Program-made: the position numbers and the translations under genes
Notes under the pieces: model-generated
The model's input: only the letters and a program-made list of their open reading frames with translations
What the model was told of the DNA's origin: nothing
Databases searched by the model: none
Shown: positions 3,432-62,278 of the stretch, piece after piece
Layout: each line of letters begins with the position of its first letter
Numbering within the stretch: position 1 is the stretch's first letter
Origin: Eledone cirrhosa
Lineage: Eukaryota
Assembly (NCBI GenBank): GCA_964016885.1
Contig: OZ024745.1
Location: 126,108,001-126,172,000, forward strand
Length of the DNA stretch: 64,000 bases
Direction: 5' to 3'

Positions 3432-3522
3432 CGTGTCTGAAGGAACCTGCAGCCGTAGAATCAGCCAGATCCATACAGTGACCATGTCTCGAGCTACCTG
3501 CCGGCGAAACAATTGTAACACG
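3432..3522 (+). ncRNA. Type I hammerhead ribozyme-like motif with extended domain II
   Basis: Stem I CGTGT/ACACG; core CTGAAGG (variant of CUGANGA); GCCG/CGGC near the base of a ~60 nt domain II; GAAA-C-AATT-G-TA; AATAAA at 3524; (TA)n 52 nt after the predicted cut. Confidence 0.6.
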
Positions 3523-3665
3523 CAATAAATTGAGTCCAGATGCATCACTGATTTTTCGTTCTTTTATACTATATATATATATATATATATATATATATAT
3601 ATATATATATATATAGAATGAATAATAACAGGTAGACACATCATAAAAAGGTAATTTATTCCGTG

Positions 3666-3777
3666 TGCTTACAAGTGTTTCCACGGTGGTACTGCAGCCT
3701 AGTTATGCTACGTGCAAATTCACAAGTACTTGCAGAACTCAAATATCCAATGCTGTGACCACTGTTTCCTCAGAGCA
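3666..3777 (-). ncRNA. Type I hammerhead ribozyme motif with 85-nt domain II
   Basis: On minus: TGCT-CTGAGGA-[ACAGTGGT...ACCACCGT]-GAAA-C-ACTT-G-TA-AGCA, then AATAAA; (TA)n 54 nt after the predicted cut. Confidence 0.7.
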
Positions 3778-4153
3778 GAATGTCAACCATTACTACATCT
3801 TGGATAATCCTATACCTAATATATATATATATATATATGTGTGTGAGAAAAACCACAGTTATTAAAACCACAGATGTGAGAAAAACCACAGACCCTCCAT
3901 CTCAACTCTACTTTTGAAAGAACTGCGAAACCGGTAAAGGAACCAAATAAATATATATATTTTTTTTTAAAATAAGACTCCAGTTGCATTTTCGATTTCA
4001 TCTTTTTTCTTTATACTTTCACTCGTGTAGGACACCTCGGTTATTTTTCATTTTGTAAAAAAAAACCTCACTTTCTAATATATATATATATATATATATA
4101 AATTAATAAAATAACGAATTATCAAAGAAACAGTTCCTTATATTAAAAAAAAT

Positions 4154-4295
4154 TCATCATTTTACGATCGTTTCTAGGATATATATGTGTTAGAGTTGGT
4201 ATGCATATTCTATAGATCTATGTACAATATTTATACAAACTATCAGAGGGAATATACATACCTACACATATATATGCTGTCTTCAGAAATAATGA
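4154..4295 (-). ncRNA. Type I hammerhead ribozyme motif with ~105-nt stem II (family D)
   Basis: On minus: TCATTATTT-CTGAAGA-[CAGCATATATATGTGT...ACACATATATATCCTA]-GAAA-C-GATC-G-TA-AAATGATGA. Stem I is 9 bp. Lies in element 4101-4418 between TA arrays; second copy at 42030-42350. Confidence 0.75.
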
Positions 4296-4820
4296 TATTT
4301 GTTTATTGAAGAAAACAAAGATTCAATACAATAGGTCTGTTTGGGAACAGGTTTTGAATTGACCAATAGAGAGATAGTGAGGGTCAATATAGTAATATAG
4401 TAGTAGAAGAACCTTAAATATATATATATATATATATATATATATATATAGAGAGAGAGAGAGAGAGAGAGGGGGGGAGAATGGAGGAGATACAGTGAGG
4501 GTAGAAGGGGAGAGAGAGGGAAAGAGATGGAAAAGAGTAGAAAGGGAGAAAAGTGGTTAAAAAAGAACTCCTTTACTACCCGATAAACATAATATACTTG
4601 TTCATTCACATATAGGAACACACATAAAATATGGCGTAGCTGGAAATGTCAAATCATTTGATAAAAACGGCAGCAAATTGAACTCAAACGAACTAAGAAG
4701 TATGAAATACTGACTCTACCAGCCATTGTCTTGAATATAAGAGACGAAACATTCTCTATATAATTTCACAGAAGAAAATTCAGTCATTCATATTTCAAAC
4801 ATATCTCCGACCTTTGCATT

Positions 4821-58198: not shown

Positions 58199-58937
58199 TA
58201 CTACTCAAATAGGTAGGATATTGCTGCTGAAACTATACATACAGATATCCTTGTATCAAAAGTATTCACCAGATTGGTAAACACGTAGAAAGCTAGTGGT
58301 TAACATTTATATTATTTCTCCGACCTTATTTCATGATTATTATAGCTTCTGTGCCGTAGACAAGATAACTCATACTAACATGTTTGAACTTTTTTTCCAA
58401 CAGTTCATAACTTCAAAGCTAAATGGGGCTACTAGTTTATTGATGTGACATTTATCAATATTTTCAGATATGTGTTATTAATAAATGTTTGTTTTAAAAA
58501 ATAATCATTTTACTAAAAATAAATCCCAGCACAGCAACTGTAGCTGTGTAAAATATATGCAGCAGTCAACAGGTTAAACTAGCAAGCGGAATATCACCTC
58601 CATCAAGGACCACAAGATACACCTATCTCTCTTCTTTGTATCATCTCGGCAGTTTTTTCCATCCCTAGATCTGCATTAAAATCTTTTCTCAATCTTTTCT
58701 TCCATTTAGAAATCTTTCCTTATCCACGTTTGCCTGTAGACATCAATATAAAACAGTTCAAACTGAATGTCACCTGCCAATCTCAGCCACTAGATTCTAG
58801 CTACTATCTCTACTCTGTTCTAAACAAAAAAAAGCACACCAAAAGAAAAATACATTCTGTAATAGATCAAAATTATTTAACATATTTAAAAATGATGAAC
58901 TTCTGATATTTGTCATGTTTTGATCTGTTTTGTTTGC

Positions 58938-59348
58938 ATTGGATTGGCAGTATTGGTAGAGGGTTGGACGCCATGCTTTGCAGCAAAGAGTTACGGCCCT
59001 TTATGGTCTGAGTTCAAATCCCGTTGAGGTTAACTTTGCCTTTCATCCTTACGGGGGTCGATAAAATAAAGCACCAGTAATACACTGGGTAATTACTGGC
59101 CTTGTGCCAAAAGTAGAAATAATTATTGCTGGCTATGTCCACAAGACATCTTTCATTATGATAATGGATTGGCAGCATTGGAAGAGGACCGGTTGCCAAG
59201 CTTTGCGGCATAGAGTTACTGCCCTTTATGGTCTGAGTTCAAATACCGCCGAGGTTCATTTTGCCTTTCATCCTTATGGGGTCGATAAAGCACCAATAAT
59301 GCACTGAGATAATTGCTGGCCTTGTACCAAAAGTAGAAACAATTATTG
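58938..59348 (+). mobile_element. Two Meta-domain SINEs
   Basis: Consensus matches at 58938-59128 and 59165-59348. Confidence 0.9.
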
Positions 59349-59917
59349 ACTAAGGGCTGCACTCATATGAAAAGCCAATGATATAATGAGGAGAGACATT
59401 AATATTTATGAGGCTTATGAGAAATATGAATTGTAAGAAAAAAAAATTGAAAATTAAGTTGATAAAATAAACAGCAGTTACTAACTGTGATTGGATTTAA
59501 TCTGAGGTCTTTGTCAAGTTCAATCAAATAAATGGATTATTTTTTATTTATTCATTTTATTCAGAACAGAAATATATGAAAACAGTTAAACAAAATGAAG
59601 TAAAAAAAAATTTACTCTTCATAAAATATTATTCCCTTTTCACTTTTTATTGCTTTCATTCTTTCTCAGAATTCATGAATATTGATGTCTTTTATGACCA
59701 AGTTGTTTTGCTTCAGTAAATGCGCTCTCTACATGAATTGTATAAATACCAGAGACCAAAACAAGGCTAGTGTATGTCATTTGAAATTCTGATTTTTTTC
59801 AAAAATATGGATACTAATCACTATTATTAGTCAAAACCAGCTCTGGTTCTATGAAACCAAACGAACCATTTCAAAAGATTCCTATTTATATTTAAAATTT
59901 TGGATATAATTTTAGTC

Positions 59918-60260
59918 CACACTGTAAAGTGGTAGTGTAGGTGTCATGACAAAAAGCACCCAGCTCACACTGTAAAGGGGTCATGTTGGTGTCATGACAA
60001 AAAGGACCCAGCCTACACTGTAAAGTGGTCATGTTAGTGTCATGACAAAAAGCACCCAGCCCACACTGTAAAGTGGTCATGTTGGTGTCATGACAAAAAG
60101 GACCCAGCCTACACTGTAAAGTGGTCATGTTAGTGTCATGACAAAAAGCACCCAGCCCACACTGTAAAGTGGTCATGTTGGTGTCATGACAAAAAGCACC
60201 CAGCCCACACTGTAAAGAGGTTGTGTAGGAAACATGGCAAAAAACACGCAGCACACACTG
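59918..60260 (+). repeat. 48-bp minisatellite, 7 units, inside a SINE ending at ~60402
   Basis: Unit CACACTGTAAAGTGGTCATGTTRGTGTCATGACAAAAAGSACCCAGCC. Confidence 0.95.
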
Positions 60261-62049
60261 GCATTAGGAAGAGTATCCAGCCGTAGAAATCTAGCCAGAA
60301 ACAGTCCTATATAAGTGAGACCCAACTTGCCTCTAATGGGACAAACCAGTCTAACCCATGCTAGCGTAGAAAATAGACGTTCAATGATGATGATGATGAT
60401 GAAGCCCTCAAAATTCTTTATTGATTACCATATTTCCCATCATCAAAGACACTTCACTGTTGAGGATGCAACCCAATTTTGACAATCAAAAATTTGAAAT
60501 ATAAAGATAAACATAAAAATAAGGCCCCGGCTCTTTGGTTCTTGTTACCTAATTTTTTGTGATATTTTGTTTGTTTACTACTTTAACTAAGTATAATTTA
60601 TAGACTTGAATAAGAGGTCATATACAGGAATTCAGATTATTGTCTAGCACAGATAATTTTCCTGTTGGGTTAGGATATGCCTATGAGAAATACAACCTTC
60701 AGCCTCCAGAACGCATGGTAGATTACCAAGCCTCGTTTTAGGGGGGAAAATAGTGTCTTCAATGCTGGGAAATATGGTAATTGAAATAGACTGTATTTAA
60801 TTAGAAATAACATCATGAAAGGGTTAAATAATTTCTATAAATTTGAATATGAATATTTTGGTTTGCTTTTATTTCTTTAGGGATATTTCTCACCAATAAC
60901 TAGTGTATAACAGAGCACGATGTGAAGTGACAGCTAACTAACTAGTAATTGATTATTTTGAGGGTTTATGGAGTCCATGATGAGTCTTCTCACCACTAAA
61001 TAAATGTCATGTGAAAATAAATGTTTCTTTTTCTGTTGCTTCCTCTTTCTCTCCCTTTAATTTTCTAAATTGCCTTTATTAGTCTGTTTCTTTTCACAAA
61101 TTTAGACATTTGTTTGTTGTTAAAGCAATTGTTTTTACAGCTGAAACTTCCTTCTGTTGCTAACCACTCAATCATAATATGACAGGGAAAGAACCTGTTG
61201 TTAAGTGAGACAAATTAAATGGAGCTATGGTTTCTACCCAGGGGCATACCATATATGAGACAGTAACCTGATTAGTTATTTGATCAGTAGTTCAGCACCT
61301 CAACTTAACAAAATGGCAAGAGATAAGAATAAAAATATAAAATTCAAAAAGAAAACAAGAGAGACACAATTAAAATTTAAGAATTTATATTTTTTCTCAA
61401 ATTGTTTATTTTTTTCTTTTTTGAAAATTTTATCAAGAAAAAAAATTTAAAAAAAAAAGTAAAATATTTAATAATAATACATGGGAATTTCAAGATTTTC
61501 TTTCATTTCCAAACTAATACTGGCAATTAAAATACTTTGTATTTGAATAGTTTATTTGGCAAGACAGAGCCAAAGCATTTAATTTCACAGGGTTTTTTCT
61601 TTTTTTTTTAAACATTACTTTTGTCTTTGACACACAGCACCAGAGAGAATAGCTTCACATTATATCAGACATCCTTCTATGTTTATGCACTGAACTGTGT
61701 TGTTGAATGCACACACACACATACACACACACACACACACACACACAAGCAAACACAAATATACACATATATTATACAGAGGTTTGTATTTTCTTTATAT
61801 ATACACTTACAAATTTGAGTTTTCTTAAACATATATATGCTTGCTTTTGTTTGTGTATGTACACATGACCTTACACAGAAATAAATAAAAGAAAGCAGAT
61901 CATATTCATCCATGTACTTATATGTTTAAAATAGTGTTATATATATATATCCAGGGAGTGTAACTTGGAGTTACTGTAGGTTCACCTGGGTGAGCACTCA
62001 ATGTTTAGGTTCACTTCAGTGTCGAGGTGTAGAGCTAGACAGAGAGTAT

Positions 62050-62278
62050 TATATTGAAATAAGATAACGAGGACGATTGGTTACTCCTTCATTACATTTA
62101 TTGGTTGTTGACACGTGTTTCACCACTGACCAGCTCAAGATTCGTCGAGCTGCAGATTACAGAATCGGGTAAAATCGATACAGATCGAACGTTGAGCTGA
62201 TCAGTGGTGAAACGCGCGTCACCAACCAATAAATGTAATGAAGGAGTAACCAATCGTCCTTGTTATCTTTTCAATATA
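62050..62278. mobile_element. TA-anchored fold-back element (family G) with two HHR 3' halves
   Basis: Arms 62050-62138 and 62192-62278; GAAA-C-GCGC-G-TC on plus and GAAA-C-ACGT-G-TC on minus, each followed by AATAAA. Confidence 0.85.

Follow-up and report, generated by a model that had tools for sequence, protein, structure and literature searches.

Penelope-like elements (PLEs) of the Hydra clade are retrotransposons with a unit of about 3 kb, a type I hammerhead ribozyme (HHR) near the 3′ end, a (TA)n target, partial tandems and inverted copies; their open reading frame (ORF) carries RWK, DKT, CxCx5C and CxxC/CxH motifs and, at its C-terminus, an endonuclease (EN) domain of the GIY-YIG type without CCHH (Craig et al. 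2021, PMC8557442). One of the inverted pseudo-long terminal repeats (pLTRs) of PLE insertions bears an extension, the "tail" (PMC3846280, PMC8557442), which in the Poseidon element PAc has been matched to two internal reverse transcriptase (RT) starts in vitro (Frangieh et al. 2024, PMC11167929). Here we describe PLE ends in 64,000 nucleotides of Eledone cirrhosa DNA (assembly GCA_964016885.1, contig OZ024745.1, positions 126,108,001 to 126,172,000 of the forward strand; hereafter the window) and at further loci of the same genome. The ends lie about 7 nt upstream of an RCTC...GAGY hairpin motif that is likely, though far from certainly, the signal in the element RNA that places the RT start.

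The general features listed above for the Hydra clade recur here, the hammerhead as a predicted fold whose core is canonical in most families and variant in others. The paper on that clade treats one octopus family, and the parts covered give no end-defining hairpin, whereas about 22 families or subfamilies are found here; tails here measure about 65-145 nt, compared with 30-40 in that paper, and several families have non-canonical ribozyme cores (PMC8557442). With PAc the elements share two ends downstream of the hammerhead, an AT-rich target and extension of both strands; PAc is of a different clade, its HHR is dispensable and RNA 3′ of the start is required, and the parts of that paper covered define no protein-binding motif (PMC11167929). 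For Penelope elements of Adineta, a 31-bp tail was described and an antisense template proposed, with no cis-signal in the passages covered (PMC3846280). Non-LTR (long terminal repeat) retrozymes are short, tandem, non-autonomous derivatives of PLE pLTRs (bioRxiv 10.64898/2026.07.22.740005), like our loci L032, L110, L286, L007 and L034 (L-numbers denote sampled genomic loci outside the window); unlike them, the tandem units of family N described below are without a catalytic core but retain both hairpin motifs. Already published are the clade, its (TA)n target, the tail and internal initiation. New here are the duplicated motif, its fixed offset and the near-strict pairing of long with short ends, none of which was described in a literature search at title and abstract level (most subscription journals, figures and most supplement parts lay outside its coverage).

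Each family has two fixed 3′ ends, one short and one long, corresponding to the known Penelope tail. Counted in nucleotides from the predicted ribozyme cut, they lie at +50 or +142 in family A, +61 to +62 or +186-196 in family B, +54 or +199 in family 3670, +54 or +187 in family 43849, +53 or +185-199 (about +193) in family 41444, +53 or +147-159 in family 62220, +57 or +172 in family 30175, +54-56 or longer in family 44695, and +17 or +97 in family N (site 9416). A total of 26 ends were mapped by placing short copies on long copies and long copies on tandem copies. Over the families the long ends fall 89-199 nt from the cut, with no fixed distance. The ends are exact to the base, 23 of 24 copies in one example and 20 of 21 in another stopping at a single base; spacing within the 30175 family varies (53-74 nt) with unchanged terminal sequence, and some of the indels may postdate insertion.

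Inverted insertions join one long and one short arm. In unselected DNA this holds for 32 of 33 scorable pairs (binomial P = 8e-9 against 0.5; nine more were unscored), and over all loci, where part of the pairs were fetched with long-tail queries, for 64 of 69, with 13 more lacking an array at one end. The only other arrangement among the 33 unselected pairs is a window pair of family A (48134..48482) with two short arms. At 48014-48560 an identical 15-nt flank lies, inverted, beyond both TA arrays of this pair, the left one fused to a truncated family A element; this arrangement points to a secondary event in which the target flank was duplicated in inverted orientation.

The motif, R-C-T-C...Y-N-G-A-G-Y-R, follows both short and long ends. 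Its 5′ arm lies 3 to 11 nt downstream of 22 of the 26 mapped ends (mean 7.0, standard deviation [SD] 1.9, compared with 14.8 for cut to end), against 2.8% at random positions and 4.2% in shuffled sequence, null rates that overstate the significance since the motif was defined on these sequences. Once noticed, it was found beyond the long ends of five further families (3670, 43849, 30175, c4 and A); because the motif was derived from these same sequences, such long-end predictions are the stronger test. In the 30175 family, the second motif follows the long end in a tandem copy (L007). The two arms can pair: when they were picked independently, the first pair was A-T in 10 cases, G-C in 5, mismatched in 3 and never crossed (Fisher P = 3e-4; 18 of 28 ends scorable), counts that are not independent, as the families are related and site-1/site-2 identity is confounded with the A-T/G-C change. 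Two families have a GTTC/GAAC variant. The first inner position is mostly mismatched (5 of 26 paired), and the second inner pair can form in 21 of 26, 13 of these as G-U. The outer flanking pair is Watson-Crick in 7 cases, G-U in 7 and A-C in 2, a preponderance of G-U over A-C that favours the sense strand as the folded one. In the four families where both motifs are seen, the second lies about 25-105 nt before the ATG; it is missing from long-ended insertions, so this second motif must act before or at integration. Junctions also show microhomology with the TA phase, averaging 2.96 nt just past the ends compared with 0.9 nt elsewhere in tails; 19 of 28 have at least 3 nt, against 6.5%.

By eye, the motif is present in 4 of 6 published Hydra consensi examined, from coral, sea cucumber and copepod elements. 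In Hydra-2_Amil and Hydra-2_Ajap it lies about 40 nt after the cut and is preceded by TAT; Hydra-1_Ajap has it twice before the ORF, and Hydra-1_Crog has a variant form at both places. The remaining two, Hydra-1_Amil and Hydra-1_Obim, have no clear full motif.

These last two consensi, the definition of the motif on the sequences tested and the dependence among the covariation counts weigh against the hairpin as the start signal, as do several other points. Four of the 26 ends fail the strict pattern (variants were recognized by eye), and 10 of the 28 could not be scored in the independent-arm test. The helix has just 4-6 bp and its loops span 8-75 nt; in roughly half of the cases the predicted probability of pairing is under 0.35, so the hairpin would need a protein to stabilize it; free-energy folding alone does not pick out the stem. 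A second class of element (32613 and c8, described below) has two ends without the RCTC/GAGY motif, and the PAc analogy is limited in that PAc is of another clade and has an AC-rich start loop.

A mechanism that would join these features can be sketched, its initiation step and protein dimer drawn by analogy with PAc. A read-through RNA over the pLTR and the ORF start would carry the ribozyme and both hairpins, and the element protein, perhaps as a dimer, would bind these. Its GIY-YIG domain would cut both strands of (TA)n; each target 3′ end would then anneal to UA-like bases, 2-4 of them, just 5′ of a hairpin so as to prime cDNA, one strand per hairpin, and the two 5′-truncated cDNAs would be joined head to head. 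A dimer using both hairpins at once would give each inverted insertion one long and one short end. We advance only tentatively the fuller proposal that the duplicated, clade-wide hairpin is the start signal, that a dimer uses both copies, one per target strand, and that the ribozyme plays no part.

The strongest alternative, which we consider unlikely but worth serious attention, is that the EN reads the motif in DNA: one end would be primed, the inverted arm would arise by fold-back self-priming, and EN cutting of TA-like bases before the motif would set the ends. Such resolution would likewise yield one long and one short arm, and TA-like junction bases are as compatible with cutting there as with priming. 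Published statements in its favour are that EN-mediated resolution "most likely" accounts for the tail (Craig et al. 2021, PMC8557442), that recognition by the Penelope EN depends on the tail (cited in PMC11167929), and that palindromic junctions point to self-priming (PMC3846280). However, flanking G-U rather than A-C pairs favour a folded sense strand over DNA reading by the EN, and arms with such variable loops between them would be difficult for a protein to recognize in double-stranded DNA. Direct tandem arrays (L286 and L034) likewise terminate in short ends, and PAc shows two RT starts directly (PMC11167929), both of which tell against EN resolution.

It is improbable that the ends owe their position solely to UA microhomology or to inheritance from previous insertions, with the motif serving, for example, translation or an ORF promoter. 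The junction microhomology is real and the second motif does stand before the ATG, but TA-like words are common in tails, yet the ends are base-exact, and in many families the 7-nt offset is repeated at both sites of the element.

An initial annotation of the window had reported a near-constant 50-62 nt from the predicted cut to (TA)n and proposed a ruler. Its hand counts are right to within 1 nt. On recounting, the distances are 52, 54, 62, 50, 52 and 57 nt at sites 3517, 3670, 4163, 6446, 29982 and 30175, and 53, 61, 54, 50, 50 and 53 nt at sites 41444, 42289, 43849, 48184, 48432 and 62220 (at 42289, 61 nt reaches the array and 69 nt the first perfect array). The four exceptions placed at about 100-150 nt (9416, 14870, 32613 and 44695) measure 97, 130, 149 and 128 nt; 9416 and 44695 are the long ends of their families. 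The sites and related features are as follows.

3430..3569, plus strand: pLTR end of family 3517; hammerhead fold with core CTGAAGG at 3437-3443, predicted cut 3517 and short end 3569, then (TA)n at 3570-3615
3616..3777, minus strand: pLTR end of family 3670; core CTGAGGA, predicted cut 3670, short end +54; Hydra ORF in L195/L194
4101..4292, minus strand: pLTR end of family B; cut 4163, short end +62
6396..6500, minus strand: pLTR end of family A; cut 6446, short end +50
9370..9513, plus strand: long-ended copy of family N, truncated 5′ of the core, with its "cut" at 9416, the short-end position at 9433, a hairpin motif at about 9442-9465 and the long end at 9513
14830..15000, plus strand: second-class HHR element (probable assignment); cut 14870, end +130
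29930..30034, plus strand: family A subfamily; cut 29982, short end +52
30118..30250, minus strand: family 30175; cut 30175, short end +57
32570..32762, plus strand: second-class element; cut 32613
41391..41560, minus strand: family 41444; cut 41444, short end +53; family core TTGACAA
42130..42350, plus strand: family B; cut 42289, short end +61
43795..44244, both strands: inverted insertion of family 43849; short arm minus (cut 43849, end 43795), long arm plus (cut 44057, end 44244)
44117..44155, plus strand: site-1 hairpin motif ACTC...GAGT in the long arm of family 43849, 5-10 nt beyond the short-end position
44323..44518, both strands: inverted insertion of family N; long arm minus (+97, hairpin motif 44371-44394), short arm plus (+17)
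44645..44823, plus strand: family 44695, long-ended copy with internal deletions
48134..48482, both strands: family A, inverted pair in which both arms are short (+50, +50)
49400..49759: family c4 copies, absent from the initial annotation; ends +25, +33 and +115
54910..54974, plus strand: family c2 copy, likewise absent; canonical core, cut 54956, short end +18
61951..62273, both strands: inverted insertion of family 62220; long arm minus (cut 62110, +159, hairpin motif 61996-62047), short arm plus (cut 62220, +53)

The near-constancy did not survive a wider count. Family patterns find 38 sites in the window (29982 and 32895 are missed by them), with 10 at 50-62 nt, 1 at 69, 8 at 17-33, 15 at 97-219 and 4 without a nearby array; the short-spaced families (17-33 nt; 8-9 window sites) and most long ends (about 15 above 95 nt) had been left out of the initial list. 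The source genome (3.0 Gb) is rich in (TA)n, and was sampled evenly over 1.6 Mb with the family patterns and over 1.0 Mb with a hammerhead descriptor blind to TA. In the former, 172 of 190 copies have an array within 250 nt (compared with about 19% of random positions), at distances that are broadly distributed: 69 below 50 nt, 27 at 50-62, 9 at 63-85 and 67 above 85. Short-end medians over 22 families, a count that includes subfamilies, run from 17 to 86 nt (median 52, SD 14.8; 13 of the 22 inside 50-62). The reported ruler is a selection from this broader distribution.

At the thresholds Rfam uses for gathering, no hammerhead was recovered in the window, and custom descriptors were applied instead. 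The TA-blind descriptor gave 52 scorable matches in 1.0 Mb, compared with 2 in total for four decoy cores, at bimodal distances (12 at 40-59 nt, 18 at 110-169, 14 without an array and 8 elsewhere). The association of hammerheads with (TA)n is far above chance.

Canonical cores are found in families A, B, 3670, 30175 and 44695, which are predicted hammerheads from their sequence. Variant cores are CTGAAGG in the 3517 copy, CAGAAGA in family c4 (L034, L135), TTGACAA in family 41444 (12 of 25 copies reach it; L266-L285), TTGAAAA in family 43849 (17 of 34 copies reach it; L212-L235) and YTGAGAA in the four copies of family N that reach it (L289, L292, L087 and L214); no core was seen in the five copies of family 62220. 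Cores of the TTGANAA form would swap the C3-G8 pair for U3-A8, a change with which a hammerhead may stay active. Stem II insertions are very long (about 60-110 nt) at window positions 3437-3505, 3680-3773 and 4175-4286, unlike the minimal PLE hammerheads. Family N contributes more copies to the sample than any other (43 of 177) and is one of two abundant families that end at +17. It was at one time taken as lacking a ribozyme, a reading dropped because its ORF-bearing copies show a hammerhead fold with the YTGAGAA core and only its tandem derivative is core-less. The tandem derivative consists of non-autonomous units of 257-273 bp (L032:9556-9813; L286, with at least six copies) in which the ORF start is joined to the 3′ half of the ribozyme. 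In these units the core is lost, both hairpin motifs are kept, and the sequence still stops at the short-end base.

The spacer in other animals bears on the same question. Distances from cut to consensus end, computed from the published HHR table for 24 Hydra families, fall in two groups, 12 at 30-70 nt (10 at 30-48 and 2 at 63-70) and 11 at 88-153, with 1 at 355. The two-end pattern is accordingly clade-wide by this comparison of consensi, with a shorter spacer in other animals.

A ruler by which a hammerhead-bound RT would begin copying at a fixed 50-62 nt downstream is therefore already largely refuted, and we give it very little credence. It could claim the 13 of 22 families with short ends in that band, drawn from at least three lineages with endonucleases 32-41% identical. 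Against this stand the 17-86 nt range of short ends, with two abundant families at +17, long ends at 89-199, core-less family N units ending on the same base, and published Hydra consensi from other animals, of which 10 of 24 end 30-48 nt after the cut. Insertion by PAc, moreover, does not depend on the HHR: activity persists when the HHR is mutated or when the RNA is truncated from its 5′ side to +20, beyond the core, and starts at 111-118 require RNA as far as +172 (PMC11167929).

Least credible of all is AATAAA-directed cleavage and polyadenylation, the other end-setter initially offered: AATAAA lies 0-9 nt after the cut in 10 of 22 families, with a spacer of 42-55 nt (SD 4.0, compared with 19.2 in the others; Levene P = 0.007, ignoring kinship), but it is absent from the spacer in 12, the short end lies 40-45 nt beyond it where poly(A) cleavage usually falls 10-30 nt past the signal, elements continue past the short end with no poly(A) seen at junctions, the long end is left unexplained, and a transcript cut at such a site would lack both ends. 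If the hairpin places the RT start, the 50-57 nt mode would be an inherited, soft spacer length, tighter where the spacer has AATAAA and a U-rich tract; in the AATAAA families this poly(A) signal and tract may keep the spacer close to 50 nt and yet not set where the insertion ends.

The identity of the elements is predicted from their coding sequence. The sites at 50-62 nt are assigned to the 3′ ends of Hydra-clade PLEs, in keeping with the initial view of them as PLE ends at (TA)n, which the Hydra-type ORFs and the arrays at most sampled copies bear out. Tandem copies continue from the pLTR into the ORF, which starts just after the second motif; element sequence runs on past the 50-62 nt point in the longer copies, consistent with the internal initiation that such a comparison had been expected to reveal. 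In the RT N-terminus, the family 3670 ORF has RWK and, where DKG would otherwise stand, DKT; the ORF of family 43849 has RLK and DKT. The L194 ORF C-terminus has a GIY-YIG EN, a CxCx5C linker (CNCHLPERC), CxxC as CRLC and CxH as CNH, with no CCHH. The unit of family 3670, a partial tandem, is 3181 bp (the repeat distance L195-L194), slightly over the "<3 kb" typical for the Hydra clade. Homologous ORFs are linked to families 43849, A, c4, N, B, 41444, f15 and c33, some of the links resting on position downstream of the ORF end. For families 3517, 30175, 44695 and 62220 the assignment rests on end structure alone; long copies of 3517 are present in L048 and L097.

The initial annotation counted at least seven unrelated families. 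About seven can be distinguished at the DNA level: A (6446, 29982, 48184 and 48432), B (4163 and 42289, to which 41444 is about 70% alike), 3517, 3670, 30175, 43849 and 62220. Unrelated they are not, as nine ORF-linked families have homologous endonuclease ends; these are 24-63% identical, and the objection that all might be one recent family falls away as well. The families are, by their sequence, old and divergent relatives.

A Neptune-type identity was considered for the families at 50-62 nt, as the first ORFs met were Neptune, and was rejected, as the linked ORFs are Hydra-type. The Neptune CX2-5CxxC linker before the GIY-YIG EN is not in the ORFs of these families; it is present in ORFs at L125 and L083 and in those at L074 and L112, the latter two leading to families c8 and c12, both lacking the hairpin motif. 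The second class (14870, which probably belongs here, and 32613; also L074, L039, L110 and L217) has cut-to-end distances of about 120-158 nt and tails of 35-60 nt. Its 32613 family has a short end at about +146-158 and a long end at about +210-214, and c8 lies downstream of a Neptune-type ORF. Further genomic copies of the 14870 and 32613 families exist. L110:4868-6418 contains a 310-bp retrozyme-like tandem hammerhead array in both orientations, with ends at +128 in one arm and +166 in the other.

Single TA arrays in the window (3570-3615, 6344-6395, 30035-30117 and 44245-44322) are bordered on both sides by different PLE families, indicating that the elements insert into each other's arrays. 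A 48-bp tandem repeat at 59917-60260 and 55160-55253 is part of another dispersed repeat.

PLEs are the closest relatives of telomerase RT, and the motif bears on how a start site is chosen inside their RNA. A short, covarying motif 7 nt from both ends in many divergent families makes that choice testable by simple mutagenesis and offers an explanation for the tail, which has been known for a long time. In this genome it further supplies a rule for placing the ends of one very abundant class of repeats. If the duplicated hairpin is indeed a clade-wide start signal used by a dimer, no cis-element for PLE initiation would have been defined before it; its conservation would reach from corals to this genome, and it could serve as a portable tag by which an RNA directs insertion into (TA)n from an internal position.

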